Shown here piece after piece: positions 6,201-47,574 of a DNA stretch of 55,361 nucleotides (position 1 is its first letter; each line of letters opens with the position of its first letter). The DNA is from Candidatus Hodarchaeota archaeon (GTDB lineage Archaea > Asgardarchaeota > Heimdallarchaeia > Hodarchaeales > Hodarchaeaceae), in assembly GCA_016839815.1 (NCBI GenBank), contig JAEOTM010000079.1, forward strand, positions 1 to 55,361, written 5' to 3'. The position numbers were made by a program, and so were the translations under genes. The notes below the pieces were generated by a model, which saw only the letters and a program-made list of their open reading frames with translations, was not told where the DNA came from and made no database searches.

Positions 6201-6551
6201 GCTGGTCCTATTAGAATGTAATCCATTAGTCAACCATGCAATTGATTGATTGTCAGAATCTCCTTCCTCAAATCCTGGATTAGTAATCTGGTTTATAACT
6301 GAGAAATCCAAGTAGCTATAATATTCTCGTACTTCCTCCCTGATTGCAAAATCCCCATTCTGCGCTATTTCTTTTGTTAGCATGAAACGAGAACCAGGAT
6401 TAGTATTGGTGATGTTTAAGGTTGCTCCCGCTAGGTATATCAAAAATATAAACATGAAAAAACGAAACCGGAAGGATTTTCCAAGTATCTCGAATATCAC
6501 ATTTATAGATAACTTGGATAGAGCTTTATTTCCGTTTTTCGATGCACTCAT
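3222..6551 (-). CDS. Large GT-C-like membrane glycosyltransferase with an inserted carbohydrate-binding-like domain
   Basis: SRFMLT, YSDKPPGVSLLAVP, TFFSH, YNY..FGGPF, HGLFTFMP, YGPRQLVP motifs; NPGFE..LDDF jelly-roll insert; extra C-terminal TM bundle. Confidence 0.6.
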   Translation of the reverse strand: MSASKNGNKALSKLSINVIFEILGKSFRFRFFMFIFLIYLAGATLNITNTNPGSRFMLTKEIAQNGDFAIREEVREYYSYLDFSVINQITNPGFEEGDSDNQSIAWLTNGLHSNRTSTLFHSGNYSFQLQSQTWVGQEFTSIDVNKIYENYTLTFYASRDEGESTYLRFTFHFTDSSNSTYWIRVNSLFFRKYSLQFSENDQNRSISSFQIENMNSSTVFLDDFEIYYSYSDKPPGVSLLAVPIYWAGEVIYTQLMGRNELDWRGMDDFIKFVTMICVLIFGAFTVLKMYDFLRLEGINHTNSHRVALLYGLGSLYYVYVGTFFSHSITAGLILLVLYQGSIFRKTGSYTSLLWSSILAGYMVVCDYIFLFFLPFFYLYLFIPILWKPNVIRKTWREYLKYYLVTNTIFLIPMVICGLLVTYYNYLSFGGPFTTPYSFARFFKDVQHFAAPMMDGLEILLTSSHHGLFTFMPIILISILGIIPMYRKSPALAVMCITAPLMLISLYSKYYLPTGGLAYGPRQLVPIVPFIILPLAFLLNQQIPRNPFSSIHSLVEFIIQYFLKISAGILGILTFLINFAGGWVGVYPLGGQSMANPIWGSIEQEGHLDAMFSWINLNLDYNGKLTLDLLQGHYMGEIHIDLIFASFTLNIHWPAASSLALHEISAFAGILFLILLVNPYFPLTNLGPFLRKKLNNLHSKDKNDIFLKAIVILGCSILSLFIIWAGVELISILGFPFNDIIVNLWNDLVAIKKSIGDIPIISFVSEAIFPIIFVLLDLLFFRSPYFTVQRWLFSSFLYLVCTAILTFADETMTFSNNKETNNQRNQIFFYANQLLGALYFGESIITIYLFNSGSSLYSEYVIIILTVILLVIANSTLLAQVTEPKENEAMDTERKISKFDSEELGTTANLIESLFALGITCVSSVIFGIIIISQVIENRVPLSDLIFIRPFNDLFSIRNWFFQGINSVPIYLILVLLIQIMIFILLLVDYRSKRNQSIPSIPKEVREEREIYFRDHQSTTGFQSVLLIGGWCVVFFYLLITVLYSTLSSVPDPSSLLTYPEELDLFFFLLIIFIITLVYTGTHKIRKELIETIKKNITSISQQEKNHGGN

Positions 6552-12469: not shown

Positions 12470-13201
12470 ATGAAAGATATTCCTGAAATTAAATCTATTG
12501 CTGATAAATTGTTTGAGGACCATAATATCAATCAGGTTCTTATTGCCACTAGTGATGGGTCCCCTATTTATGGATTAGAACGAGGAAAAGAAGGGTTAGG
12601 AGAAGAATTATTTATTATACCTGCAGCCATCTCAAGTGCTCTTGCTATATCTCATGGATTTATGCAAGAAACTCTCAATGACCAAGTTTATGAGTATGTT
12701 GTATTTCAGGAAGATTCCATAATTCTTGCCTCTCGTGAAGGTGATACGGTCCTTATTATTACTTATAATCTTCCCAAAACTTCATTTGAAAAACGACCTC
12801 CAATTGACGATTTAATTTCTCTTTCAAGAGAAGCTGTCGCGAAGATTGGTGCTATTGTTAAGACGCTTGATATTGAAGATAGTTTGATCGAAAAACTACA
12901 AAGAGCGATTCCTGAAGCGAGTGCGATTTTGTTACTTTCATCTGCAGGTATCCCTCTTTCTGACCTTCTATCCAGTTTAGATGTGGATTCAGCTCAGTTA
13001 GCCGCAGTTTCTTCCGCTTTATCTCTTCCCACAAAAATTCTAGGAAAACAATGCCATAGTGTAGCCGTAACAGGAAAGAGTAATCTTATTCTCCTATATG
13101 CTTTAGACGCAGATAGAATCTTAATGGTATCATTGAAACCAAAACAAAGTGTAGAATCATACTTGACTCTAATTTCTCAAATTGTATCACATCGAGAATA
13201 A
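12470..13201 (+). CDS. Tandem roadblock/LC7 (MglB/LAMTOR-like) domain protein
   Basis: Two repeats of the roadblock pattern: VLIATSDGSPI..PAAISSAL and ILLLSSAGIPL..LAAVSSAL; GTGAGG SD upstream. Confidence 0.75.
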   Translation: MKDIPEIKSIADKLFEDHNINQVLIATSDGSPIYGLERGKEGLGEELFIIPAAISSALAISHGFMQETLNDQVYEYVVFQEDSIILASREGDTVLIITYNLPKTSFEKRPPIDDLISLSREAVAKIGAIVKTLDIEDSLIEKLQRAIPEASAILLLSSAGIPLSDLLSSLDVDSAQLAAVSSALSLPTKILGKQCHSVAVTGKSNLILLYALDADRILMVSLKPKQSVESYLTLISQIVSHRE

Positions 13202-15178: not shown

Positions 15179-15739
15179 TTAGGGGGTTTGAGATTCCACA
15201 TAATCCAGATAGACATTTCCGAGCATATCAAAGGCTGCGGAAACATTCAAGCCTGATTTTGCGGAAGTAGGCATATATTTAACTAAAAAGCCTGCTTCTT
15301 TGGTCTTCTCAGAGACTTTTGCCGCAAATTCCTCCGCTTGTGCATCGGTTACATGATTGGGAAAAGATTCACGAAGGTCGACCTTATTGCCAAGTAAAAC
15401 AATTGGGATCTCACCCTTACCATTGTGTTTGTAGATTTCATCAATCCATGACTCAAGATTTGTAAACGTGTCTGGTCGTGTTACGTCAAAAACAAGCAAT
15501 GCACCTAAACAGCCGTAATAGTAGACACTTCGTACAGTCCCAAAACGGGGTTGGCCTGCTAAGTCCCAGATTTGGAATTTAATTGATTTTTCTCTAATGT
15601 TTGCCTCTTTAAGAGCAAAATCAGCTCCTATGGTCATCATGTAGTTACTAGAGAAGCCCTTTCCCAGGTATCTTTCTCTTAATGCTGTTTTTCCCACAGC
15701 GCCGTCGCCTGCGAGCACTATTTTCATTAGAAAGCTCAT
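15179..15739 (-). CDS. Rab-like small GTPase
   Basis: G1 GDGAVGKT, TIGADF, G3 WDLAGQ, YYYG, G4 GNKVD, G5 TSAK; no C-terminal Cys motif. Confidence 0.93.
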   Translation of the reverse strand: MSFLMKIVLAGDGAVGKTALRERYLGKGFSSNYMMTIGADFALKEANIREKSIKFQIWDLAGQPRFGTVRSVYYYGCLGALLVFDVTRPDTFTNLESWIDEIYKHNGKGEIPIVLLGNKVDLRESFPNHVTDAQAEEFAAKVSEKTKEAGFLVKYMPTSAKSGLNVSAAFDMLGNVYLDYVESQTP

Positions 15740-23081: not shown

Positions 23082-24875
23082 TTGATCGATCTTATTTCTG
23101 AGTTGTTTCCTCTTGCACTTCTTCTTGTATGTGCCATGAGTTTTGTTTTAGGATTGTATGTTCTAGTCAATAATTCCAGAAACCAATTAAATAGAAGTTT
23201 TTTTGTATTAGCAATGTTAGCATCCTATTGGATGGTATTTGCATTATTTAGACATATTACACGCGATTTCGCTTTAATGCAATTCTGGTTTCATGCAATA
23301 TTCTTATGGCCGTTTGTTATCGTTGCGTTAACAAGATTTATAGTTATATTTTGTCAAGCAGAGGCAATCTTAAATCGGATTTCAATGAGAATGTTATTAT
23401 ATATTCCCGCAACTAGTTTCTCTCTATACTGGCTCTTTGGAAACATGGATCAGTATTTAATCAGACGATCCTGGGGTTGACAAGTTTTTATCTCAACTTT
23501 TCATCCAATCAGCTCACTGATTACTTTATGGGCTATTTTCTTAACCGTAATCTCTTTTAAAGTTGCTTCAGAATATTATAAAACCATTCAAAACAAGATA
23601 ATTCAACAGCAGACGCGGTTGGTTTTCGTTGCGTCATTGGTGACAGTATTTAGCGCAATATTATCAGAAGTTATTTTCCGAACTTTTTTAGTTGATTTAC
23701 CACCATTTACCTCAATAGGATTTGGAATTACTTGTGTTATTCTAGCTATTTCAATGATGAAATTTAAGCTCTTTTTGATCAATCCTGAAATGGCAGCAAG
23801 AAATATTCTAGCTCAGATGACAGAAACGGTATTTTTACTTAATCCAGCTGGTGAAATCATTTCAATAAATCTTGCTGGACTAAGTTTGCTTAATTATACA
23901 GAACGTGAATTACTAGGAAAAAATGTTCTAGAATTCCTCACTGAACAATATCGATCTCAAAGCTCATTCAATGAACTCCTAAATCACGTAAATCCATCTC
24001 AGCAACATGAATTTGAATTAGAGTTTCTAACTAAAGAAGGGAGAAAAATTCCTGTTTCCATATCTAATTCATTACTTAATAGTGAAGACAATAAAGAAGT
24101 TAAAGGTATTGTATGGTTAAGTAAAGATATAACCAAACAAAAACAACTTGAAGAGCAACAACAGAAGACAGAATTAGTTAGAAAAGAATTGGAGGAAAAA
24201 AAGCATACTTTCATAACAATGACCTCTCATGAGCTTAGAACTCCCTTAACCGCAATATTGGGGTACACAGAGTTTTTGGAGAAGACTATAAAGAGTGATT
24301 TTAATGAAGAGGTGTTCACACATCAATTAGGCATTGTGAAGAAAAATGCACTACGATTAGATCGCCTTACTAGGGGTCTGATGGATATAAATCAAATTGA
24401 TGAACAAAAGTTTCGGATCAAGAAGGAAAATGTTAATTTTTTGGATTTCTTGGAGGAATCATTCTCTATTTATAAGCAACGATTGAAAGATAGATTTCTA
24501 GTGGAAATTTCCCATGACATATCCCCAATATTATTAAACATGGATTCAGATAGAATTAACCAAGTACTAGTCAATATTATTGACAATGCAACCAAAAATA
24601 GTGGAAAAGAAAACCTACACATTCATATAAAGTTAGAAATAACACCAGAGACAGTTCATCTCAGTATCACAGATCAGGGACCTGGAATCGAGAAAAAATA
24701 TCTTGAACACATCTTTGAAAAATTTGTTTCTATTCCAACAAAGAATTCGGTTATTGGATCTGGAATTGGCCTGTATGTCTCTCGGATGATTATTAAGGCT
24801 CACGGAGGAAGATTATATGCCGAGAGTGAGGGAATGGACAGAGGAGCCACTTTTCACATTATTTTACCAAGATAA
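23082..24875 (+). pseudogene. HisKA_7TM-PAS sensor histidine kinase interrupted by one in-frame TGA (23478-23480)
   Basis: ORFs 23082-23480 and 23619-24875 share a frame, with open hydrophobic sequence between them; PAS, SHELRTPLT H-box, N, D/G1 (DQGPGI), F and G2 (GSGIGL) boxes are intact. Confidence 0.75.
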
Positions 24876-24905: not shown

Positions 24906-27900
24906 TTAAATACGTCGTTTACGTACATAAGTACTAATTCCTGCTCCAGTCACAAATGCAAATATAATTAACGAGATTATGGGAATAAATGGAATGAAGA
25001 TTGTACTAAGTTCAAGCATATGAATACTATCACTCGTTACAAAAACATTACCAGCATAATCCATAATTTCAACATAGACTTGAGCATTCCCTGCAGCTAA
25101 TCCTCGTCCTTTGGCAACCCATTGGGTACCTTCAGCATAACAATCAAATGAAAACCATGAGGATTGTTTAATGTAGACTTTTACAGAGGCAACACCCCAA
25201 TTATCGGTCGCAACAACTTCTATGTTCAAGTAGGGTGAATCTACATCTTGAATTTCTGATAATTTGAGACGGTTTAACGTGGGATAAATCAAATCCTTGA
25301 CAATTTCACCTGTCTGTGGATCAATTGGAATACGTGCTTCTCCTAGGATAGCAGGTGCACTTCTAACAATCCAGTCATCGTACATACTTGATAATTTCGC
25401 AGGTACAACTAAAGATTGACGTATATTCGATGCAATCAACCCATACTTAACCTTAGTTTCTCCTGCGGGTAATTGAGCAAAGAAAAAGGTTATTCTCGTG
25501 CTTGAAATGCTGTACATTTCTTGACTGTGTTGAACAGTGCTTGGATCAACCGTGAATCCTGACGGGATTGATTCCTCCAACATGAGGAAATTCATTGTCT
25601 CATTCTCATTGTTCACCTTAAGAGTTACCTGAATTAAGTCTCCGGGTTGAATATATTTCTCCTGTGAAAATTCTCGATCTAATGACAATCCTACTACTCT
25701 AGATTTCGATTGAAGACTCATTTGAACTTCAGATTTAGGATTATTTGGGTCAGAAATCGGTGTTGACACAGTAAGGATACCTTCAACGGAATTACTTACT
25801 ACAAGTGTTATTGGACCATATTGCCGACTTATGATTCCAGGAGAGAATGATGACTGATCACTATTTGCTAGAAGATAGAAAATTTCAAATCCAGGAATCG
25901 TATACGTTCCAGGAACAGAGGGAGCTTCATACCTGAAGGTTAATGTAGTCTCATGAGTTAATAATTGAATGGTTTGGGGGAGATTAATAATAGGAAGAAT
26001 CTCTCCTTGTACTGGACTGATTGTGACATTCGCTGCAAACACCTCGGCTGATTGAGGACTTAGCTGGATTGGAATATTGACTTCTTGCGTTGGAGCAACA
26101 GTTATCTCTGAAGGAAGGAGAATTTCAGGTAAAGCACGTAGAGTTTGATGGCTATAGAAGTAATAACTGACGTTCCCCGTTCCAGATTTGCTAAAAGTGA
26201 AATTATTTTCTCCAGATTGGATAAGAGATTTGAGATTTAGGTATATGACAGGTTCTCCATTTACTGAAAGATCGTAATTACCGATTTCTTCCTCATTTAG
26301 ATATACTTTCACATTAGTATCCTCATCAGAGCTGAATCCTTCTTTACTAATTGTGATTAGACTAGAAATTGCTGCAGAAGTATCTGCGGTATTTCCCCAT
26401 CCATATCGTGATTGTCTTCCTAACAACCATTGAATTGCACCACGTATGATCGGCATGTGGGAAGTGGGATCTTTCTTAACTAGTGCTTTCAATGCCAAAC
26501 CAGTAATCTCTACTTGACCACCCAAAGCTCTCCAATAATATCCAGGAGTGGAGGAATATTTCCAAAAGTTTCCATCTCCAGATAACTGAACTTCACTCAC
26601 AAGATAGGAGAGGAGATTTGATTCGAATGTAGGAGAACCAAATGATGAATCCACGACCGCATCAAGATATAGAGCAGCCAAATAGGATGATTGCTTAGTA
26701 GAATCACTCCACGCACTGGACACGTAACTGATTGCATCATTAATTGGATCTATATCTGTAAGTTCAGCAGACCAGTAGATAAGTGATCGTAGAGCAAATG
26801 CTGTAAATGAAACCTCGTCAATATTTCGCCATGAATCAGGAGTCCAGCTTCCATCATAATTTTGTTTGGTTAATATCGAGTTAAGAGCTGCCTTTACTAC
26901 AAGTGGATCAACATAAATCCCAACATCTCGTACTGCACTCAATCCATAAAGGACGAGAGCCGTCATATAAACTCGAGATGAATCACTAGACCACCAACCC
27001 CAACCTCCATCAGGGTGCTGTTGACTATATAACCGAGATAATCCTGTGACAAGCATATCTGTTAATAAATCAGCAGTTTCATTGGTTAATTGACCTGTTT
27101 CATTCAAATAGTTCAATATCAGTGCATCAGGCACGATTCGTGATATTGTTTGTTCTGTGCATCCGTATGGATAACCCACTAACCGCTCCCATGAACTTAT
27201 CGCGGTTGAACCTAAACCTAATGATAATTCTAAGAATTCTATCTGTTTTACAGCGTCAGAGTATCGTAAATACTCGAAGTGTGGTTTCTGGTATACAAAT
27301 CCGCTTTCTTTAAATTCCGTTTCAACTCCATTAGGAATAATATCCACTGCTTTTCTGATTGCGTCAGAATACCGAGAGCCATTATTTAGTTCAGTAGTTG
27401 CATAAATTGTAACATTGACAAAATCAGCATCTTCTGCTAAACAGGCCCAGGATATCGATCCTAAAAAGTCTCCAGGTAGTCGAATTCTTTGCGAAGCATC
27501 TCCTAAAACCGTTATTCCATTCGCTGGGTCTATAGATACATCTATTTCAGCTAATTCCCCTAAATAGTTGTAAACTACACCTTTGATAATAAAAATATCA
27601 TCTTGCAATACAAATGGATCTTTAACAATCTCCACAAAGAACGGTATGAACGTTTTGAATGTATATTTTGTTAAGGTACCTATACCAGAAGTAGGTGAGG
27701 TTGCAACAACTCGAACTGTCCATTCACCAATAGTATCGGGAAGAGTAATAGTGATTGAGATTAATCCATCCTCTTCAATTGCAAATGGTGTCCAAAACGC
27801 ATTCTCTGGTAGGTTATCTCTGATTTTTTGCCCTACATCGGCATCAGGAGGACTTTCCTCTGTATTTTTGAATCCTTGTTCATTTGTAGGCGCACCATAG

Positions 27901-30776
27901 TCAATCATGACATCTCCTTCATAATAACCTCCTCTCCAATAAGATGGGTATCCAAATCCGTAGAAATCATCGCACCACCAGAACCACCAATCGAGTTGGC
28001 GACTTTTCCATGAAGATACCGTCCAAACTGAAGGCCAAAACTGTTGATCCTTAAAATGTTCAAGTTCCGATTCAGGATCTGGTTCGACTCCAAAGACCGA
28101 GCTATCAATGAATGAAATCGCCAGAACAGTTGAAATAGGGTTATTTTTGGCATCGAATACCTGAATATCTATTTTAGCTTCTTCACCCGGTGTGTAAACA
28201 TCTTTATCAGATTTAATCTCCACAATAAGGGATGAGTCAATTTCCACATATAAACGTACTTCTTGAATAACCCCAGTGGACAAGATTGCAAATCCATAAA
28301 TCCAAACTTTTGGTGCAAGGGTGGAAATATCACTAAGTGTCAAACTAAATGAGCTTGCTGTACTAGATGGAATATATTGAGTTGTGAGTATTCCTTTCTT
28401 CACAAATTGGACCATGACAGGAGCGTTTGTTTCCCCTTCTACCTCTCCTGAAATTGTCATACTGTCACTTAGAGTGTAGCTAGCTTTATCCAAAGTCATT
28501 GAGAACTCTTGAGAGGGGCCTACTGTGAAAAAAGCTGTTGTATCATATTTATAATAATTATATGATCCCCATTCGTATGTAAAAGTTTTCCTTACATAGA
28601 TATGCACAAAATACTTTCCATTTGGTGCATAGGAGGAAAGTTGGAATGAAAAAGTCTCTCCAGATGTAGGTACAAAACTCCTTTTTTCACCGATTAACTC
28701 GTAATCTGTATCAAAGATACGTACACGGACATTTCCAGATAGTTGACTAAAAGTTAAAAGACTATGAAGATTTACGTTAATATTCACTGTTTCACCAGGC
28801 AAATAGGATTCTGAATCAAGAGATACATCGGCTCTTAACAGATCTACAGAGAAGTAAAATGATGACATGCCATTCCGACCATCCCCTGAATTTAATTCAA
28901 CTACTCCATAAAATCTGGTAGTAAGAATTAAGATTTCTTGCGGGATAGCAAATTCGTAACGACCATATCCATTTTCGTCTGTTTGTGATTCAAAAGTGGC
29001 TACATAGATTGTAGTATCTTGAGATAACATTCCATAAAGCTTAATGGTTACTTCAGCTTCAGGAAGGGGTTGAAAGCTTCTCCAGTAATAATATCCAGCA
29101 GAATATTGATAAGCACCAAAATAAAGGGTAACATTTTCATCTGCTTTTGGGAACCATGGATTTACCCACGCCCAAACGTAAACATTTTCTGTGATTTGAA
29201 CAGAGGTAGAGAAACTAACCTCTCGATCTACAGTGTCAGTTACTGTTGCATTTAATGATATACCATATAATCCACTATCTTTCAATGAGGAAGGTAATCT
29301 ATAGGAAAATTTCCATAATCCATTTTCATCAGTTTCTCCAGATAATGTTGTAAGATCTCCAATCAGAAGTTCTACCTGTCCTTGAATCACAGGTTTTCCA
29401 AAATAGTAGATAGCACTTAATGTTCCAGACACTCTTTGACCAGGAGCAACATACTCTTTATCCAACTCGATCTCAACCCTGTATGCGGGTTTTTCATATT
29501 TATCGACTCGAATATCAGTTGTGGTAATTACCTCATCCTTCTGGGTGACAATACTATATGCTCCCAGTTCACTTTCTGAATCAAGCACGAAGGAATATTC
29601 GGAAACACCATATGAATTTGATTTTAGAGATTTTTGGAATAAAGTATGATGAGAGGGAGATAGTAATTTCAAAGTAAATGATGTGGAAATAGGTTGCTTT
29701 GTCGCTTTCAGGTAATCATTTTGCCATAATAGAATTCGGGCTTGAACGGTCTCTCCTGGATTATAGATTGGCTTATCGGTTGTCACAATGAACTCGTAAG
29801 GACTAAATTCCTGATATCCATCAGAGGTCCAGTAATATCCTCCGCGGTAAATGTCCCGTAAAACGTACGTAGTTTCCCCATTATACGTAACAGAGAGATT
29901 GGCCATAAAATGATAATTTTCACTAAAATTAGATGGAGGAATAAACGTGATTTCAGTAACTCCCTGTACATCTGAGATTCCACCGAACAGTTCTTCAGAG
30001 TAGATGGAATAATTTCCAGATTGATAATCATAAGTAAATAACTCTCCCGTGAGCGTTACCGCCGCTCCTGTAATAGGCGAAAAGTCAGTAGTATTTAGTA
30101 CATATGCTACTGAATAATGCGGTTGCCCTTTGACAAATTCACGTGAGACTCTCCAAAAAATACCAATATCTGCGATATTGAATGATCGAGATTTATAGTA
30201 ATAAGCATCATATTCATCACGTATAATTATTGAATATCGCCCTTGAACAGAAGTTTGAAATATTCCCTCATACTGGCCATCTGAATTTGTAGTGACGATT
30301 TTTCTTTCAATGATTCGATCTTCATAATTCACAATATCATAATAATAATAATGATACCATCCCCAGTACTCACCTTTAATAATCTCAATAGTGATTCTTT
30401 CACCTGGTACTGGATTCAAGCCTCTTGAAGCTTGGATGACATATCGTAGAGGTTGCCCAGGTTGAGTAATTTCCTTTTCCAGATCAATTTGGATTACTAG
30501 TCGCTCATCATCACCTTGACCAATCTTAGACGTGACTTCTGGAGTCATATTATTAAAATTCAGGGGACTAGGATCAAATGATTCGTACGAGGCTGTTTCA
30601 GGTTGTTCAATTGCCTGAATTTCTGGTTCAAGCTCAGGTGCTTGATAATTTTGATTATTCAAAACATCTATTGCTGTAGAATCATGTTCTACCATTAAGT
30701 CAGCTGATGTGACCTGTACTATTCCAAATAATAAGACTAATAATAGTGTTAAGCTAATTACTCTGTTTTTGATCAT
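24906..30776 (-). CDS. Alpha-2-macroglobulin / thioester-containing protein, secreted and C-terminally membrane-anchored
   Basis: TDKPIYNPGE (MG2), YEKP, YYFGKPV, IRDNLPE, LPDTIGEW, thioester YPYGCTEQT, QHPDGGWGWW TED; signal peptide and C-terminal TM+RKRR; start set at ATG 30776. Confidence 0.93.
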   Translation of the reverse strand: MIKNRVISLTLLLVLLFGIVQVTSADLMVEHDSTAIDVLNNQNYQAPELEPEIQAIEQPETASYESFDPSPLNFNNMTPEVTSKIGQGDDERLVIQIDLEKEITQPGQPLRYVIQASRGLNPVPGERITIEIIKGEYWGWYHYYYYDIVNYEDRIIERKIVTTNSDGQYEGIFQTSVQGRYSIIIRDEYDAYYYKSRSFNIADIGIFWRVSREFVKGQPHYSVAYVLNTTDFSPITGAAVTLTGELFTYDYQSGNYSIYSEELFGGISDVQGVTEITFIPPSNFSENYHFMANLSVTYNGETTYVLRDIYRGGYYWTSDGYQEFSPYEFIVTTDKPIYNPGETVQARILLWQNDYLKATKQPISTSFTLKLLSPSHHTLFQKSLKSNSYGVSEYSFVLDSESELGAYSIVTQKDEVITTTDIRVDKYEKPAYRVEIELDKEYVAPGQRVSGTLSAIYYFGKPVIQGQVELLIGDLTTLSGETDENGLWKFSYRLPSSLKDSGLYGISLNATVTDTVDREVSFSTSVQITENVYVWAWVNPWFPKADENVTLYFGAYQYSAGYYYWRSFQPLPEAEVTIKLYGMLSQDTTIYVATFESQTDENGYGRYEFAIPQEILILTTRFYGVVELNSGDGRNGMSSFYFSVDLLRADVSLDSESYLPGETVNINVNLHSLLTFSQLSGNVRVRIFDTDYELIGEKRSFVPTSGETFSFQLSSYAPNGKYFVHIYVRKTFTYEWGSYNYYKYDTTAFFTVGPSQEFSMTLDKASYTLSDSMTISGEVEGETNAPVMVQFVKKGILTTQYIPSSTASSFSLTLSDISTLAPKVWIYGFAILSTGVIQEVRLYVEIDSSLIVEIKSDKDVYTPGEEAKIDIQVFDAKNNPISTVLAISFIDSSVFGVEPDPESELEHFKDQQFWPSVWTVSSWKSRQLDWWFWWCDDFYGFGYPSYWRGGYYEGDVMIDYGAPTNEQGFKNTEESPPDADVGQKIRDNLPENAFWTPFAIEEDGLISITITLPDTIGEWTVRVVATSPTSGIGTLTKYTFKTFIPFFVEIVKDPFVLQDDIFIIKGVVYNYLGELAEIDVSIDPANGITVLGDASQRIRLPGDFLGSISWACLAEDADFVNVTIYATTELNNGSRYSDAIRKAVDIIPNGVETEFKESGFVYQKPHFEYLRYSDAVKQIEFLELSLGLGSTAISSWERLVGYPYGCTEQTISRIVPDALILNYLNETGQLTNETADLLTDMLVTGLSRLYSQQHPDGGWGWWSSDSSRVYMTALVLYGLSAVRDVGIYVDPLVVKAALNSILTKQNYDGSWTPDSWRNIDEVSFTAFALRSLIYWSAELTDIDPINDAISYVSSAWSDSTKQSSYLAALYLDAVVDSSFGSPTFESNLLSYLVSEVQLSGDGNFWKYSSTPGYYWRALGGQVEITGLALKALVKKDPTSHMPIIRGAIQWLLGRQSRYGWGNTADTSAAISSLITISKEGFSSDEDTNVKVYLNEEEIGNYDLSVNGEPVIYLNLKSLIQSGENNFTFSKSGTGNVSYYFYSHQTLRALPEILLPSEITVAPTQEVNIPIQLSPQSAEVFAANVTISPVQGEILPIINLPQTIQLLTHETTLTFRYEAPSVPGTYTIPGFEIFYLLANSDQSSFSPGIISRQYGPITLVVSNSVEGILTVSTPISDPNNPKSEVQMSLQSKSRVVGLSLDREFSQEKYIQPGDLIQVTLKVNNENETMNFLMLEESIPSGFTVDPSTVQHSQEMYSISSTRITFFFAQLPAGETKVKYGLIASNIRQSLVVPAKLSSMYDDWIVRSAPAILGEARIPIDPQTGEIVKDLIYPTLNRLKLSEIQDVDSPYLNIEVVATDNWGVASVKVYIKQSSWFSFDCYAEGTQWVAKGRGLAAGNAQVYVEIMDYAGNVFVTSDSIHMLELSTIFIPFIPIISLIIFAFVTGAGISTYVRKRRI

Positions 30777-30852
30777 TTTTATCACATTTGGGGAAAAATT
30801 GAGATTCTCTTTTCTAATTCGAATACTCACTCCCGTCATATTAGATACCAAG

Positions 30853-30972: not shown

Positions 30973-33582
30973 TTAGCTCTCTAAATGAAAGAATTCAGTC
31001 AATGGAATGATAAAACGGCCGTGAAGGGCTTCATTCTCATTAAGAGAAATGCCAAATCGATTACTAGCCCCAAGAATTTCTTTTATATAGTGAAACCGAT
31101 CAATTTTCTTCTGACCTGATCGAAAAACATCTGGATGAAAGGCACGCTTAAACTGTGGCTGATTAAGTCCACTCTTGGCTATTATATATGGAAATCCATC
31201 CCATTGTGTCCATTCAATCTCGGAATCAAGATTCTGTGCCCTGCAATAGTTAAGAAACGCACCTACTGCAGGAGTACGGGTTTTGTACTTGGTAGGAGCC
31301 CGTTTTACAGGCCCCCTAATCCTCAATTCCGGAAGAAGTTCAGAAAGAGGTGCCTTTAAAATAAAACGACAAGTCTGGATTACAAACCTCCGAGCTTTAT
31401 ACATTCGACGATCACTAAAGTCCATTAGGAGAATTTCAAGTAATTTTCGTTGAGTTTTTTTAGCTAATGGAGACCAATCAGACCTGACTGCTTCAAAACC
31501 CCGAATAATGACATCTTGAGAGAGGAGTGAGAGATATGCATATGCTTTCTTTCTTCCTTTTTTTAAAATAATTCTGAGGGCGATATCTTCGAGTTTTAAC
31601 TCAAGAAGATCTGGTAGCTGATTGGATAAAAACTCTTGGTACTTTTCGATAAAAGTATGGAGTAAACGTAGGTTCTTGATTCGGTGATCTTCAGGCACTG
31701 ATGGAAGAAAATCGGACGGGTCTAGGCTAGAGCTAATAAACTCACAAAATATAGAATCTGTATCTCCATAACGTACTACTACATTAAATTCTTGTGTTTT
31801 GGAAAATTCCTTTGTCCAATCTTGTAGGCGTTCACCTAATAACTCCCGTGCAATTCCTGTAATACTATTTGATAAGAGGTGATGATAAAAACGCCCTCGT
31901 GGATAATTTGCTGCTCCACACAGCGAGTTCGCCATCAATTTTAAGGAGCGTTGCTGTTTTTCAAGTAACTGGATTCGTCTACGCTGATCATTTGATATTC
32001 CATTTTCTCTTAGAGATTGCAGTGATTTAATGGAATGATATCTCTCATCAAGAATTCGATCCATAAGATCCGCAAAAGCACCTCTTGGTTCATTGAAAAA
32101 CCTATCTTCAGGTGATTTCGACTCAGAATGTGGAATAAGGGTTTCTCCAGAAATATTATGCGTTCTAACAATATTCGGATACAAAGAACGAAAGTCAAAG
32201 ATTGCCACAAAAAGGGCCTCATCGACTTCTGGATCAATTACCCATCCTCCAAGATGAGGATACTTCTTTTTCAATACATTTCGTTCCGAGATTTCAGATT
32301 TCGAAGGCTTAGAAGGAACAAGAATATTACGATCATGCAAAATGCGCATTAACTCAAATTCACCAATATTTCGACTAGTGGAGAGTAAACCCTCGGGTAA
32401 AAGATATCCAGCAAGCTTACATAATTCAATCGCGGTGATTACACCTAATTCTGCAACTAATCGAAATGTAAGGATTGAGTCGGTTATTGAATAATCATAA
32501 AATTGCTCTCCATCACTAAAGGATCCATTAATACTATTCCTCCAGAGTTCTCCCAAGCTTTTTTCGGATTTAACTTTAGTCTCTCCTAATAATAAACTCG
32601 CAATTGTATCAAGATTCTTTTTACCAGAGAGAGGATGAATATAACGCGTTTTAGGGATTAAGTCTACAACTGCTCTTCCTTTCAAACGAAATCCATCTAT
32701 AGGAACAGAAGTTCGAATGATATCAGCCTGGCGGTGCTCGAATAATGCAAGCGATCCTAAAGATAAACCATATCTTCCCATTCGGGCTTTAAGATAAGGA
32801 ATATCAAAATATGTTCCGTTAAATGATACAAGTACATCAGGATCAATTTTTCTAATGTTTTGAACAAATTGGTTAAGTAATTTCTTTTCAGCAACATCAG
32901 TATCAGCTTGTAGGATAAGTGCGTTTGCTTCAGGAGTATTTTCACCTGATTTTCCCCAAGCATAAGAGATGGCAGTCACTCTACGTATTTTACTAGAAAA
33001 TAGTTCTTGAAAAGTTTCCCCTTGTTCATTTACTTCAATGTCAAATGTCAGAATTAAGGGTTGATAATCAGCTAATTGTGCGTCCGATGGTTGTAATTTT
33101 TGATAGTCAGCTTCTAATGAGATTTTATCAGGAGCCTCATTAATTATTTTCCCGTCTACAGAAAGCATTTGAAGTCCCCGTAGATTTCGATCAATTAAGA
33201 ACCGTTTGGTAAAGGGAATATCTGCTTCAAAAACGTTAATACCCCGAAGTTCAAACAGAGACCGTATCTTGGGTACTTGATAGGGACGACGACCAGTAAG
33301 TTTAGTTAGAATTTTCTGCTCCGCACCAAAATAGGTTTGTTTATTACACTCCTCTATTCCAATGATCCATGATTGAATAATCTCTCCTTCTTCCTCAATT
33401 ATCTCATGAACTGATTCTACACTTGTTTCAACATAAAAGTAAGGGAAGAATCCAGTTACTACAACTTCAACTCTATGATTTTCACTTCTCCCCCATAAAT
33501 GAATATTCGTAGTTTGTTGGTCACTAGAGACAGAATAATCCGCATCTAATAAGATAAAGTCTATTTCTGTCTCCAATTTCAA
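30973..33582 (-). CDS. polB: Family B DNA polymerase with 3'-5' exonuclease
   Basis: ExoI FDIE, ExoII FNG..FDIPYL, ExoIII YSITD, region II DFRSLYP, region III KLMANSLCG, region I YGDTDS, KKAY, RGFEAVRSDWS. Confidence 0.93.
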   Translation of the reverse strand: MKLETEIDFILLDADYSVSSDQQTTNIHLWGRSENHRVEVVVTGFFPYFYVETSVESVHEIIEEEGEIIQSWIIGIEECNKQTYFGAEQKILTKLTGRRPYQVPKIRSLFELRGINVFEADIPFTKRFLIDRNLRGLQMLSVDGKIINEAPDKISLEADYQKLQPSDAQLADYQPLILTFDIEVNEQGETFQELFSSKIRRVTAISYAWGKSGENTPEANALILQADTDVAEKKLLNQFVQNIRKIDPDVLVSFNGTYFDIPYLKARMGRYGLSLGSLALFEHRQADIIRTSVPIDGFRLKGRAVVDLIPKTRYIHPLSGKKNLDTIASLLLGETKVKSEKSLGELWRNSINGSFSDGEQFYDYSITDSILTFRLVAELGVITAIELCKLAGYLLPEGLLSTSRNIGEFELMRILHDRNILVPSKPSKSEISERNVLKKKYPHLGGWVIDPEVDEALFVAIFDFRSLYPNIVRTHNISGETLIPHSESKSPEDRFFNEPRGAFADLMDRILDERYHSIKSLQSLRENGISNDQRRRIQLLEKQQRSLKLMANSLCGAANYPRGRFYHHLLSNSITGIARELLGERLQDWTKEFSKTQEFNVVVRYGDTDSIFCEFISSSLDPSDFLPSVPEDHRIKNLRLLHTFIEKYQEFLSNQLPDLLELKLEDIALRIILKKGRKKAYAYLSLLSQDVIIRGFEAVRSDWSPLAKKTQRKLLEILLMDFSDRRMYKARRFVIQTCRFILKAPLSELLPELRIRGPVKRAPTKYKTRTPAVGAFLNYCRAQNLDSEIEWTQWDGFPYIIAKSGLNQPQFKRAFHPDVFRSGQKKIDRFHYIKEILGASNRFGISLNENEALHGRFIIPLTEFFHLES

Positions 33583-36111: not shown

Positions 36112-36145
36112 GAAGCAGAAAAACAACAACTAAAAAGTGATTAAA

Positions 36146-37288
36146 ATGTCCCTAGCAGAAGGAATTACAGGTAAACCCCTCGTTATTGATAATGGTACTG
36201 GTTTATCAAAAAATGGTTATGCTGGTGAGGATCAACCTCGTTCAGTTTTTCCAACATTAATAGGATATCCCAAATACCAATCCATTATGTCTGACGTCGA
36301 CCACTATGTTCGTGAATATTACGTAGGTGAAGAAGCTATGAACCTACGGGGTGTATTGAAACTTATTTACCCTATCGTGCACGGAGTAGTTACAGACTGG
36401 GACGCGATGGAAAAGATTTGGCATTATACGTTCCACAATGACTTACGAGTCAATCCAAGTGAACATCCAGTTCTCTTGACAGAAGCTCCTCTTAATCCAG
36501 GAAAGAACCGAGAGAAGATGGCAGAAATTCTCTTTGAAACATTCAATGTTCCAGCGATGTATGTGTCCATGCAAGCTGTCTTATCTTTGTATGCTTCCGG
36601 AAGAACCACTGGTCTAGTTATAGATGCAGGAGATGGAGTAATACACATTGTACCTATTTATGAAGGCTTCGCAATCGCTCATGCAATTAGTCGTATTGAC
36701 ATTGCCGGTCGTGATATCACTGAATATCTACGACGATTATTACGAACCCGTGGACGTGCTTTAACCTCTTCCGCCGAACGAGAAATTGTACGAGATATCA
36801 AAGAACGACTATGCTATGTTGCTCTTGATCCTGAGAAGGAGCTCAAGTTAGCAGAGAAAGTCTCTGGTATGGAAAAGCAATATACTCTCCCTGATGGTGA
36901 AACTTTGACCATTGGTCCTGAACGATTCTTAGCTCCTGAAGCTTTCTTCAACCCCTCAGCTATTGGAAAAGAAGAAACTCCTTTGGATGAAGCTATTTAT
37001 GCCTCTGTTCAACTTTGTGATATTGACCTTCGAAAAGAACTTTACCAAAACATTGTCCTATCTGGTGGATCAACCATGTTCCCTGGATTAAAAGAACGTC
37101 TTCACAAAGAACTCACTGAGCTCGTACCTGACAATGTCGAGATCCGAATTGTTGCCCCTCCCGAACGTCGTTACTCTGTTTGGATTGGCGGTTCTATTCT
37201 CTCCTCTCTAAAAACCTTCCAACGCCTCTGGGTTGCTCGTAAAGAATATCAAGAGCAAGGTCCAGGCGTTATCAAACGAGCTATCTAA
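36146..37288 (+). CDS. Actin (Asgard eukaryote-like actin, Lokiactin-type)
   Basis: [101 protein letters not shown]. Confidence 0.98.
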
Positions 37289-44775: not shown

Positions 44776-44958
44776 TCCTCTTCCTCTCTCGTTTATTCTT
44801 CTACATTAAGACATTAATTCATTTCACTTCTTTGAGGAACGAGAATTAATGAATAGAAAAATTATTCTTTTCTCGGATCTCTCCTAAGGTAATCTATTTA
44901 TACCCCACTTATTAGAAATCAGTTGTTTATCGCACACATAGTTGAATGTGGGATTTTT

Positions 44959-47574
44959 TTGGATAAGCGAGTGATTGAATGGAATCTCCCCTTGATGGAG
45001 ATATCTAAAGCCTCAAGACATGAAAAAAGTGTAAGACATGGTCACCCAAGCACTTTACACCTCTGGTGGGCTCGTCGTCCACTCGCTAGTTCTAGAGCTA
45101 CTATACTTGCTGCACTACTAGATTTACCCAAATCTAAAGCTGATCAAGATGACATTCTAAGGTTAATCTCAGATATCTCACCATGGAATATAGTGAAAGC
45201 TCCGAATAATCCCCAAATAGAAAGAGGAAGAAAAATAATCAGATCTCATTGGCCATCACATCCTCCCAAAATATTAGACCCCTTTTGTGGAGGTGGTTCA
45301 ATTCCAATGGAAGCAATGAGATTGGGATGTGAAACTTATGCCTCTGATCTGAACCCAGTTGCTGTGTTAATCTCTAAAGCAACTTTAGAATGGCCACACA
45401 CTTGTGGATCAAATAAGCTGGCTGATTTCGTTGCTTATTGGGCTGAAAGGATTCGTGTACAAGTGAATGAGGAACTAAAACAGTTTTATCCAGCAGATTC
45501 TAATGGAAATGTCCCCATTGGTTATCTCTGGGCAAGGACAGTCCCTTGTGCAAATCCAAGATGTGGTAATTCTATTCCATTAATCAAACACTTCTGGTTA
45601 GCTCGGACAAAAACACGACAAATTGCCTACAAACCAATAGTTAACCATGATCCAAAGAATTCTCTTTCATTTATAATCCAGAAAAACGAGGAAATTGATT
45701 TTAATCCATCAGAAGGAACGATTTCAAGAGCTACAGTACGATGTCTCTTTTGTCATCAGGTTATGTCTTCACAAAGGGTTCGAGAATATGCTAAACAGGA
45801 GAAAATCGGTCAAATAATGACTATCGTTATCTTACGTAATCCAATAAAAGCCAAGAAGGTATATCGACCTGCATCAAAGCAGGATCTCAAAACGTATCTC
45901 GAAGCATGTTCTTTTCTATCGGAAAAAATGGAAACTGACAACCAATTTATGGAACTTATTCCAGATGAACGATTACCACCTAAAGGAACTTTAGGGTTTA
46001 GTGTGCAGAATTATGGGCTCCTTAAATGGAAAGATTTGTTTAATAATCGACAATTACTCTCTCTAGTATTCTTTTTAAAAGAAATTAGGACCAGTTTCCC
46101 TTTCATTCGTCAGTGGCTGAAGTCCAACCATCCTAAATCCATTTCAGATGGTAAGGAAATTGATAAGCTAATTATAACCTACCTAGCTATTATCCTGGGA
46201 CGATTGACTGATAAATGTTCGAACCTCGTCATCTACAATGCGTACGGGGAGAAAATTGAGCATGTATTTGGTAGAACAGCTCTTCCAATGGCTTGGGATT
46301 ATGTTGAATTAAATGTGTTTTCAGGTGCCAATGGAGATTGGTCAAAACAGACAGAATGGGTTATTCGATACCTGCAAAATAATTCGTGGGAAGCATCATC
46401 CAATGTGACTGTTGAACAGGCTTCAGCCACAAAGCTGGAGTACCCAAATGATTTCTTTGACGCAGTTATAACGGATCCGCCGTATTATGATAATGTTCCA
46501 TATTCTGATCTTTCTGATTTTTTTTATGTATGGTTTAAACGAGCAGTAGGCGACCTTTATCCCCAATTATTCTCCACTCCCTTGACCCCAAAAGCTTTAG
46601 AAATTGTAGCTAATAAAGGCCGTCAGGAAAACCCAAAAGAATTCTTTGAATCACAGATATCCCAAGCTTTTCAAGAGATTTATCGAGTTCTTTCACCAAA
46701 TGGGATTGCCTTATTTGTTTATGCACATAAATCTACTAAAGGATGGGAGACCATGCTCGGAGCTCTTATCCAAGCAGGGTTTACAATAACTTCGTCTTGG
46801 CCGATTCATACAGAAATGAGAACACGGTTAAGAGCTCGTACCTCTGCAGCATTAGCCTCCTCAATTTATCTTGTATGTCGGAAAGGGAAACAACACCCAG
46901 ATGGTTACTTCCGAGAGATATTAACCAAAGCAGAAATTAACATAAAAACACAGTTAGAACGATATTGGTCAGACGGGATTCGAGGAGGAGACTTCTTTAT
47001 ATCTGCAATTGGCCCCGGAATGGAAATATTTAGTCAGTACAAGGCGATCCAGAAATATTCTGGAGAAAGAGTTTCGATCTCCGATCAACTAATAGAAATT
47101 CGCAAAATATCTACGAACTTTTTATTTCAAATACTAACCAATCTCTCACATGATGTGAAGATTGATGAAACTGGCCAATTTTATCTTGCTTTTCGATGGA
47201 CATATGGAGAATCGATTGTTGACTACGGAGAAGTTCAAGTCCTGGCTCAAGCTTACGGTTTTGATCTAAAACGATTTTCGAGATCTGATGGATTTATTGA
47301 AATATCAGGTTCAAAGGTAACAGTTAAATCAGCGTTACAGCGCTCTGAATTTAATTTGGACCATCCTTCACTTGTTGATATAATGCATCGAACCATTCTT
47401 GCATGGAAAGCGAATGATAAGGAGCTTTTAATGTCCTTGAATAAAACAATACTAAAACCTATCAACAATATTTTTGGTCCATTCTGTCAAGCTGTTGCGG
47501 AATGTTTACCTCCCCATAATCAAGAAAAGCAGTTAATAGAGGGATTGCTTGTGAGCAATTTCCTATCGAGGTGA
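44959..47574 (+). CDS. DUF1156-family DNA adenine methyltransferase with Zn-ribbon inserts
   Basis: TLHLWWARRPLA, LDPFCGGGSIP, SDLNPVA, TDPPYYDN, WPIHTE; CxxxxC and CxxC; start probably TTG 44959. Confidence 0.9.
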   Translation: MDKRVIEWNLPLMEISKASRHEKSVRHGHPSTLHLWWARRPLASSRATILAALLDLPKSKADQDDILRLISDISPWNIVKAPNNPQIERGRKIIRSHWPSHPPKILDPFCGGGSIPMEAMRLGCETYASDLNPVAVLISKATLEWPHTCGSNKLADFVAYWAERIRVQVNEELKQFYPADSNGNVPIGYLWARTVPCANPRCGNSIPLIKHFWLARTKTRQIAYKPIVNHDPKNSLSFIIQKNEEIDFNPSEGTISRATVRCLFCHQVMSSQRVREYAKQEKIGQIMTIVILRNPIKAKKVYRPASKQDLKTYLEACSFLSEKMETDNQFMELIPDERLPPKGTLGFSVQNYGLLKWKDLFNNRQLLSLVFFLKEIRTSFPFIRQWLKSNHPKSISDGKEIDKLIITYLAIILGRLTDKCSNLVIYNAYGEKIEHVFGRTALPMAWDYVELNVFSGANGDWSKQTEWVIRYLQNNSWEASSNVTVEQASATKLEYPNDFFDAVITDPPYYDNVPYSDLSDFFYVWFKRAVGDLYPQLFSTPLTPKALEIVANKGRQENPKEFFESQISQAFQEIYRVLSPNGIALFVYAHKSTKGWETMLGALIQAGFTITSSWPIHTEMRTRLRARTSAALASSIYLVCRKGKQHPDGYFREILTKAEINIKTQLERYWSDGIRGGDFFISAIGPGMEIFSQYKAIQKYSGERVSISDQLIEIRKISTNFLFQILTNLSHDVKIDETGQFYLAFRWTYGESIVDYGEVQVLAQAYGFDLKRFSRSDGFIEISGSKVTVKSALQRSEFNLDHPSLVDIMHRTILAWKANDKELLMSLNKTILKPINNIFGPFCQAVAECLPPHNQEKQLIEGLLVSNFLSR

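Follow-up and report, generated by a model that had tools for sequence, protein, structure and literature searches.

A predicted membrane-tethered thioester macroglobulin of Hodarchaeales as a candidate protease trap at the archaeal surface

What would a complete thioester protein of the alpha-2-macroglobulin (A2M) type do at the surface of an archaeon, and does it bear on the origin of the complement-type proteins of animals? These questions are raised by a gene on the reverse strand of a stretch of 55,361 nucleotides (contig JAEOTM010000079.1, positions 1 to 55,361; here referred to as the window) from a Candidatus Hodarchaeota archaeon, the assembly of which (GCA_016839815.1) comprises 4.24 Mb in 206 contigs with 89.5% completeness and 7.8% contamination. 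The encoded protein of 1956 amino acids (aa), hereafter the window protein, belongs to a distinct Asgard family with a conserved thioester motif and a hypervariable segment at the place where A2Ms carry their bait. We consider it probable that it acts as a membrane-tethered, bait-triggered and thioester-dependent protease trap that guards the archaeal surface, and the present trees do not support it as a forerunner of the animal proteins.

Reactive site, domain architecture and topology

A word-indexed homolog search with the window protein returned 188 matches, the identical protein P0002 among them. The top 46 clusters lie at 45-81% and then at 30-35% identity and are nearly all 1920-2011 aa long; after these 46 clusters the bit score falls from 870 to 249, and bacterial A2Ms align over about 30% of the query. 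The motif GC[TVI]EQ is present in 46/46 of the Asgard clusters, and in the 41 full-length members that were aligned the surrounding sequence Y-P-Y-G-C-x-E-Q-T (with C1206, E1208 and Q1209 in the window protein) is invariant. As overall identity among these sequences is as low as about 30%, the invariance of the thioester motif and its flanks points to selection on the reactive site.

Column entropy in the same 41-member alignment peaks at residues 1-90, 931-990 and 1651-1710. The second peak (2.14-2.33 bits, 9-13% gaps, many insertions and deletions) is bordered by conserved blocks on either side, and residues 931-985 are rich in aromatic residues and glycine at first and then acidic and polar. 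The hypervariable segment stops at a conserved I-R-D-N-L-P-E-N motif, and in the HMMER alignment this motif is matched to human A2M starting with residue 729 (E-T-V-R-K-Y-F-P-E-T-W); in the residue numbering that we assume for the human bait, residue 729 follows immediately after the bait. By this alignment, the segment appears to sit at the bait position of human A2M, right before MG7. In human A2M, a bait of 39 residues is described as lying within the bait-region domain (BRD) inserted in MG6, with Gln975 as the thioester glutamine, which agrees with Cys972 by count in our alignment (PMC13069473).

With regard to the preferred nucleophile, residue N1318 of the window protein aligns with Asn1088 of human A2M, and the column is occupied in the 41 sequences by N (19), G (10), a gap (6), S (2), H (2), D (1) and P (1), with no conserved histidine nearby. 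Asn1088 is presumably the equivalent of the catalytic histidine of C3 and C4B, which enables thioester-containing proteins (TEPs) to form ester links to surface hydroxyls. Since histidine occurs in this column in 2/41 sequences, a histidine-catalysed route to hydroxyls would not be general in the family, which fits the capture of protease lysines. The column may thus serve as a weak pointer to direct amine reaction in the style of A2M over histidine-catalysed hydroxyl transfer in the style of C3 and C4B.

The Pfam matches are all above the curated cut-offs, follow the domain order of A2M and are far beyond chance. They comprise MG2 (residues 329-423, 99.5 bits, cut-off 32.8), A2M_BRD (PF07703, residues 761-895, 30.7 bits, cut-off 22.7, with no individual stretch passing alone; 43-61 bits in homologs), A2M/MG7 (PF00207, residues 993-1081, 53.3 bits, cut-off 21), TED_complement (PF07678, 93.9 bits, cut-off 22) and bMG10 (residues 1708-1800, 34.5 bits, cut-off 26.2), and neither bMG3 nor A2M_recep gave a Pfam match on the window protein. 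In a profile of residues 25-760 built on 33 members of the family, the match to residues 11-307 of TEP1 (MG1-MG3) begins at profile position 208, which leaves about 200 residues ahead of the MG1 equivalent, and the MG2 of this profile aligns to MG2 of C3, C4, A2M and CD109. In comparisons of alignment slices by hhalign, residues 92-228 are MG-like (95.4% to MG2, 93.4% to MG3), as are residues 541-650, 651-760 and 761-900, and internal repeats were found at 85-96% probability. By these profile comparisons, on which the domain count is based, the N-terminal half would consist of a variable linker (residues 25-~90), an extra domain MG0, and MG1-MG6 with the BRD (Table 1).

The C-terminal quarter, residues 1479-1956, was modelled by AlphaFold2 from a 32-sequence alignment with a mean predicted local distance difference test score (pLDDT) of 80.9 and a predicted template modelling score (pTM) of 0.34, so that the single domains are reliable and their mutual arrangement is not. 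In the model, the CUB return strands are followed by a first beta-sandwich (A), a disordered linker, two further sandwiches and a terminal helix. Each sandwich was searched with VIA-align against 48,161 representative PDB chains. The middle one matches the receptor-binding domain (RBD) of bovine A2M (1ayo_B, Z 14.1, root-mean-square deviation (rmsd) 2.5, 120 aligned), the MG7-to-C-terminus structure of E. coli A2M (4ziu_A, Z 13.2) and MG8 of C3, C4 and C5 (Z 11.2-12.3; C3 MG8 12.2-12.3). Sandwich A gave generic beta-sandwich matches only (Z 10-10.7). The best matches of the membrane-proximal sandwich C are CBM56 beta-1,3-glucan-binding modules (Z 10.2-10.4, rmsd 2.1-2.4, 80-83 aligned), a mid-range match that indicates fold resemblance only. 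Foldseek with the whole C-terminal model yielded generic tandem-Ig matches only (TM-score 0.13-0.26), and when a profile built on the last 478 residues was run against the PDB sequences, nothing matched at E up to 0.1. The model thus predicts one extra sandwich ahead of the MG8-like domain and another ahead of the anchor.

The open frame at 24906..30851 (-) runs 1981 codons from a TTG; the ATG at 30776 yields the protein of 1956 aa beginning with MIKNR. The N-termini of the orthologs, distant ones included, begin at the same n-region, which makes this ATG the best start. The signal peptide has a classical n-region, h-region and A-x-A-like end, and as the first of the four cysteines of the protein (935, 1112, 1206 and 1879) is residue 935, it contains no lipobox. 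A 19-residue hydrophobicity scan detected two hydrophobic segments only, at residues 1-~30 and ~1918-1951, the second of which is directly followed by the C-terminus YVRKRRI. A signal-like N-terminus was found in most of the 46 clusters, the exceptions looking N-terminally cut; a C-terminal hydrophobic segment is present in 46/46. In 44/46 it closes the protein together with a basic tail, and in P0042 and P0043 a longer polar tail comes after it. These signals strongly suggest a type-I membrane protein that is exported by its signal peptide and tethered to the outer face of the membrane by its C-terminal helix. Processing by an archaeosortase, as for surface proteins with PGF-, PEF- or VPXXXP-CTERM signals, was considered and rejected: a search of the C-terminal 60 residues at E up to 10 yielded no CTERM sorting domain, a PEP-CTERM match in one ortholog stayed below threshold (12.7 bits, cut-off 16), and no archaeosortase (PF09721) was found in the source genome, the assembly of which is incomplete. 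We therefore regard the helix as a simple stop-transfer anchor.

A sequence-only reading of this DNA had named a GCTEQ thioester, MG domains and a TED, a signal peptide without a lipobox, a C-terminal transmembrane (TM) segment followed by RKRR, and two additional Ig-like domains, one before the MG8-like domain and one before the anchor. All of these were recovered by the analyses above, the thioester at exactly the positions that had been given as approximate.

Table 1. Positions of the macroglobulin gene and of the segments of its product in the window
Feature	Residues	Positions	Strand	Basis
Whole coding sequence, 1956 aa plus stop		24906..30776	-	ATG start at 30776
Signal peptide (MIKNR..VQVTSA)	1-24	30705..30776	-	Hydrophobicity scan; cysteine positions
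Seven MG-like domains: MG0 (92-228), then MG1-MG6 with bait-region domain	92-930	27987..30503	-	Pfam, profile comparisons
Bait-like hypervariable segment	931-985	27822..27986	-	Entropy peak, insertions and deletions
MG7 ('A2M' domain)	986-1085	27522..27821	-	PF00207
TED	1195-1473	26358..27194	-	PF07678; same coordinates in genome search
Predicted thioester motif GCTEQ	1205-1209	27150..27164	-	Sequence; homolog conservation
Extra beta-sandwich A, between CUB return strands and MG8-like domain	1551-1660	25797..26126	-	AlphaFold2, block pLDDT mostly 87-94
Disordered hypervariable linker	1665-1692	25701..25784	-	pLDDT <50; entropy peak 1651-1710
MG8/RBD-equivalent (bMG10)	1697-1811	25344..25688	-	Pfam; fold match
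Membrane-proximal beta-sandwich C	1833-1921	25014..25280	-	AlphaFold2
Predicted C-terminal TM helix and basic cytoplasmic tail	1922-1956	24909..25013	-	Hydrophobicity scan; AlphaFold2 helix 1930-1953

Distribution and phylogenetic position of the family

An exhaustive search of representative proteins with residues 940-1830 retrieved 8756 proteins at E <= 1e-3, of which 863 reach E <= 1e-30. The ranking is led by about 25 representative members of the ~2000-aa family, down to E 1.6e-95, and the next score is 255 bits. The homologs at 45-81% identity bear the NCBI names Candidatus Hodarchaeales, Heimdallarchaeota or Promethearchaeota archaeon. The gene is single-copy in the source genome; of the 21 further genomes in its GTDB genus, 19 also carry it, and the two that do not are 87% and 71% complete. 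In the phylum, 49 of 400 genomes match at E <= 1e-10. The long (~2000-aa) family accounts for 39 of these 49, the genome of the window included (f1 19, f6 1, f19 8, f20 9 and f32 1, by our labels for GTDB families); outside the genus its members are about 30-33% identical to the window protein and are distributed patchily across other Asgard lineages, Candidatus Harpocratesius repetitus (L012) being a carrier in f19. The remaining 10 matching genomes contain shorter A2M types or fragments only. Within the same class, the family was not found in 31 genomes of f3, nor the full-length form in any genome of f4 or f5. In Hodarchaeales, the gene is an old vertical inheritance. In some Asgard genomes (G117, G127, G280, G281, G229, G081 and G050), a second A2M type of about 1550-1670 aa was observed, which matches only at residues ~980-1540 with 25-29% identity; there is thus more than one A2M lineage in the phylum.

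In a search of the PDB sequences, eukaryotic A2Ms came first (E 6.5e-41 to 1e-38, spanning MG7 through TED), followed by A2ML1, TEP1, CD109 (97 bits), C4 and C3, far ahead of the A2Ms of E. coli and Salmonella (E ~1e-5 to 1e-6, TED only). The host belongs to the Hodarchaeales, which have been proposed to be close to eukaryotes, and together with this ranking its affiliation speaks for the suggestion of the sequence-only reading that the protein is relevant to the origin of eukaryotic TEP and complement proteins, i.e. that it is their forerunner or sister, passed on by vertical descent from the Asgard ancestor of the eukaryotes. The eukaryotes-first pattern, however, is lost under wider sampling. 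The bacterial protein P0048 of the GCFEQ group outscores the window protein against every eukaryotic class, with 220 versus 135 bits for A2M, 198 versus 97 for CD109, 155 versus 98 for TEP1, 134 versus 83 for C4 and 124 versus 37 for C3. When the metazoan A2M P0160, a fused gene model with 42 cysteines that scores 876 bits against human A2M, was compared with the 284 collected proteins, 277 matched; the best prokaryotic ones were seven bacterial GCGEQ proteins (375-427 bits), the GCFEQ proteins reached about 210-240 bits, and the window protein ranked 93rd with 133 bits.

Trees were computed from the MG7-CUB-TED core of 100 hand-chosen sequences, about 180 other collected proteins being left out. 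The rows comprise 25 Asgard-type proteins, 22 other long or TM-anchored ones, 35 bacterial ones, 17 translations of named loci from bacteria or DPANN and, of the fused P0160, the first copy (LG+G4 quick search, 552 columns, Shimodaira-Hasegawa approximate likelihood-ratio test (SH-aLRT) only). A second tree (LG+C20+F+G4 with posterior mean site frequencies, PMSF) was computed from a hand-chosen subset of 47 rows. In both trees, the Asgard-type family forms one clade with support 100, and the metazoan P0160 lies inside the GCGEQ bacteria (SH-aLRT 99). In the 100-row tree, the GCGEQ proteins, P0160 included, form a 22-row clade with the GCFEQ bacteria (99), and this clade, the Asgard clade and a metagenomic clade of ~2400-aa proteins make up a three-way split without resolution. 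Further out stand a clade that contains DPANN proteins and a clade of 40 bacterial rows of the bMG3/bMG10 type, the latter cut off from the window protein by a branch with support 100. The 47-row PMSF tree gives the same picture, with a branch supported at 98 between the Asgard clade and the metazoan-plus-bacterial clade. Constraining the Asgard and metazoan proteins to group together, as the sequence-only reading would have it, lowered the log-likelihood by 83.5 (p 0.030 in the approximately unbiased (AU) test, which was run after the tree had been seen). The trees contain a single eukaryotic sequence on a long branch (1.06-1.7) and come from quick searches with no bootstraps. Together with the distribution in the class, where the family was not found in f3 nor the full-length form in f4 or f5, these comparisons make the window protein highly improbable as a forerunner or sister of the eukaryotic proteins. 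The window protein is, as far as such trees can indicate, a member of an Asgard-specific clade within the prokaryotic A2M radiation and is not supported as a forerunner of animal TEPs.

A recent transfer from bacteria, to which nesting within a bacterial A2M clade would have pointed, was likewise rejected. The proteins group in their own Asgard clade, the GC content of the gene (0.355-0.394) is ordinary for the 2-kb bins of the window (0.315-0.394), and the gene for a family-B DNA polymerase (PolB) lies upstream in 14 related loci.

The ~2400-aa clade (P0145, P0148, P0157, P0161 and P0244) shares the C-terminal layout of the window protein in that the TED is followed by a long gap and then, where detected, by bMG10 and a CARDB beta-sandwich. 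Pfam detects bMG10 in 3/5 (P0145, P0157, P0244) and CARDB after the bMG10 position in 3/5 (P0148, P0157, P0244), and a clear C-terminal TM helix is present in P0157 only. At 2382-2811 aa, these proteins are about 400-800 residues longer than the window protein, with about 30% identity in the core, and in the 47-row tree they group weakly with the remaining prokaryotic clades (SH-aLRT 84). In P0244, the A2M (MG7) domain is preceded at a short distance by bacterial TSP3 repeats, which lie close to the place of the bait.

Archaeal homologs of A2M with a signal peptide and a TED with intact CxEQ have been described before, comprising 27 proteins in 24 genomes (Makarova 2021, PMC8416519). The text passages on A2M in that work treat proteins of Halobacteria and Methanomicrobia, not of Asgard archaea; a row of its supplementary phyletic table gives two A2M homologs in Heimdallarchaeota LC_3, as a count only (PMC8416519). 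In searches of the literature on macroglobulin and thioester proteins of Asgard and other archaea we found no description of an Asgard A2M clade beyond this count.

Known systems, the proposed trap and its rivals

Among the characterized systems, the bacterial type I A2Ms (ECAM/YfhM and SaA2M; PDB 5a42, 4ziq, 4u48) are likewise prokaryotic, membrane-tethered and extracytoplasmic, and they share with the window protein a CxEQ thioester, a bait, one or more extra N-terminal MG domains and a last MG domain of the bMG10 type; their monomeric snap-trap is the likely working model. They differ in the anchor, which is an N-terminal lipid in the bacterial proteins and a predicted C-terminal TM helix in the window protein. 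Unlike them, the window protein has no lipobox, no PBP1c partner and two additional C-terminal beta-sandwiches; sequence similarity is weak and confined to the TED, and the two lie on opposite sides of the split with support 100. Type I bacterial A2Ms are described as thioester-dependent and paired with PBP1c (PMC5764988). A PF00912 match was found neither in the source genome (89.5% complete) nor among the 41 open reading frames (ORFs) of the window that were scanned, which bears out the sequence-only reading on this point and is expected for an archaeon. Eukaryotic A2M and A2ML1 (PDB 6tav, 7s62, 7q1y) are the best matches among solved structures over MG7-CUB-TED, have their bait in the same place and resemble the Asgard family at the aligned column for nucleophile selectivity, where Asn rather than His is the commonest residue of that family. 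The window protein differs from them by an identity of at most ~25%, by not being of the tetrameric type, with four cysteines only, by the lack of A2M_recep and by its membrane anchor, and it is not their sister in the trees. CD109 (PDB 8s3o, 9fx2) is also a cell-surface TEP tethered at its C-terminus, by glycosylphosphatidylinositol (GPI) in place of a TM helix, and the likeness is one of topology only.

All parts of a monomeric thioester-dependent A2M are thus present in the Asgard family, i.e. export, a tether, a variable bait, a conserved predicted thioester and an MG8-like domain. Modelled on the monomeric thioester-dependent proteins E. coli ECAM/YfhM, Salmonella SaA2M and human A2ML1, the mechanism would start with a foreign protease that cuts the exposed and fast-evolving bait (residues 931-985). 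Upon cleavage, the body formed by MG7, CUB, TED and MG8 would rearrange, and the presumably buried thioester between Cys1206 and Gln1209 would become exposed and acylate a lysine of the protease, which would end up covalently fixed to the cell-bound trap. In this manner, the protein might shield the surface proteins of an archaeon without an outer membrane. From this analogy, we infer that the thioester forms, that the bait is cleaved, that capture is covalent and that proteases are the targets. Monomeric A2ML1 is described as dependent on covalent binding (PMC9156758).

The C-terminal anchor, the conserved thioester motif and the hypervariable bait-like segment make a protease trap or a covalent tagging protein, between which the sequence-only reading had left the choice, the natural interpretation. 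Several points weigh against the trap. It is a reading wholly of computational evidence, and the fold model covers the C-terminal quarter; at the Asn/His column the alignment has low posterior confidence and an adjacent gap of 6-7 residues, which leaves the nucleophile preference weakly based; no protease gene or functional partner is conserved beside the macroglobulin gene; and anchorage in the cell's own membrane would suit a thioester that tags or tethers another cell just as well. The self-anchored topology and the CBM56-like membrane-proximal domain keep alive the main alternative, that of a covalent tagging or adhesion device in the manner of TEP/C3 or CD109, in which the activated thioester would tether or mark another cell or particle such as a syntrophic partner, a competitor or a virus. 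A cell-bound topology is that of GPI-anchored CD109, itself among the PDB matches, and the archaeal A2M homologs have been set in a context of inter-microbial conflict and immunity (PMC8416519). Against such a device stand the rarity of histidine at the column that corresponds to C3 and C4B, the hypervariable bait at the A2M position, which is a signature of protease sensing, and the mid-range nature of the CBM56 match, and we regard it as unlikely, if worth keeping in view.

A related and still bolder possibility, in our estimate quite unlikely, is that the Asgard thioester proteins are not, or not only, traps and instead act as bait-triggered covalent 'harpoons' which fix foreign surfaces to the archaeal membrane, with the CBM56-like domain reading glycans. 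If this were true, they would represent a prokaryotic, cell-bound counterpart of the surface tagging by TEP and CD109 that is independent of the animal system. It might also be speculated that the A2M scaffold serves as a structural surface or envelope protein without thioester action, either like the type II A2M MagD or as an inert part of the surface layer. Large Ig-rich surface proteins are common in archaea. Type II bacterial A2Ms are described as trapping proteases without a thioester (PMC5764988); nevertheless, invariance of the thioester motif and its flanks in a family of such low overall identity argues against an inert scaffold and renders this explanation very unlikely.

Genomic setting and meaning for Asgard archaea

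The stretch was found in four DNA runs of one marine-sediment metagenome study, and no RNA run was listed with it. Its Asgard origin is supported by the named homologs and by neighbouring genes for PolB, actin (36137-37288 (+), 442 bits) and a Ras-family GTPase (15179-15739 (-), 150 bits); a further eukaryote-signature gene of the window encodes a Roadblock/LC7 protein (12470-13201 (+)). The PolB gene (30973-33582 (-)) is located on the same strand, 197 bp upstream of the macroglobulin gene, and is kept directly upstream in the 14 loci within the genus, an adjacency that is probably just gene order. Downstream, many loci of the genus contain a 261-aa ORF and an inositol-1-phosphate synthase gene. 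In the window, a histidine kinase gene with PAS, HisKA and HATPase domains (23082-24875 (+)), preceded by a separate 132-aa ORF for the N-terminal part of a seven-transmembrane (7TM) sensor, stands between the macroglobulin gene and the 261-aa ORF. The pair has no tblastn match in the related loci and looks like an insertion, in which the kinase may have been split from its membrane part. Beyond gene order, no conserved functional neighbour was found in the Hodarchaeales loci.

At the non-Hodarchaeales loci examined (f19 and f20), a small gene of 154-202 aa accompanies the macroglobulin gene in 13/13 cases, on the same strand and directly upstream in 11/13 and one ORF off in L110 and L118 (examples are L012:6889-7446 (+), L111:6098-6610, L113:6307-6840 and L120:6029-6604, with 9 more loci). 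Its product has a basic N-terminal tail and an ArsR/TrmB-like winged helix-turn-helix, for which the Pfam matches (E 7e-4 to 5e-3) lie below cut-off, and it is predicted to contain two TM helices; neither the window nor the loci of Hodarchaeales contain a homolog. In the f19 and f20 lineages, the product may regulate the macroglobulin gene from the membrane. Elsewhere in the window, two large adjoining ORFs of 658 and 1109 aa (1256-6551 (-)) are without a Pfam match at E <= 1e-4, and a protein of 883 aa that combines DUF1156 with DNA methyltransferase domains, N6_N4_Mtase among them (44923-47574 (+)), is a possible methylase of the restriction or defence type.

The family is a distinct clade of a known superfamily, marked by its type-I topology in the membrane, one additional MG domain at the N-terminus and two additional sandwiches at the C-terminus. 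Hodarchaeales and several further Asgard lineages stably keep, as a single-copy component of their cell surface, a complete and, to judge from its sequence, apparently reactive machine of the A2M/TEP type, with a membrane wiring opposite to that of the bacterial A2Ms. Descent of the animal complement-type proteins from an Asgard gene is unsupported, the animal proteins grouping, as far as the evidence now goes, with those of bacteria. The family is a candidate for how wall-less and partner-dependent archaea defend or manage their surface, and it offers a well-conserved surface machine, amenable to experiment, from the group of archaea that is nearest to eukaryotes.

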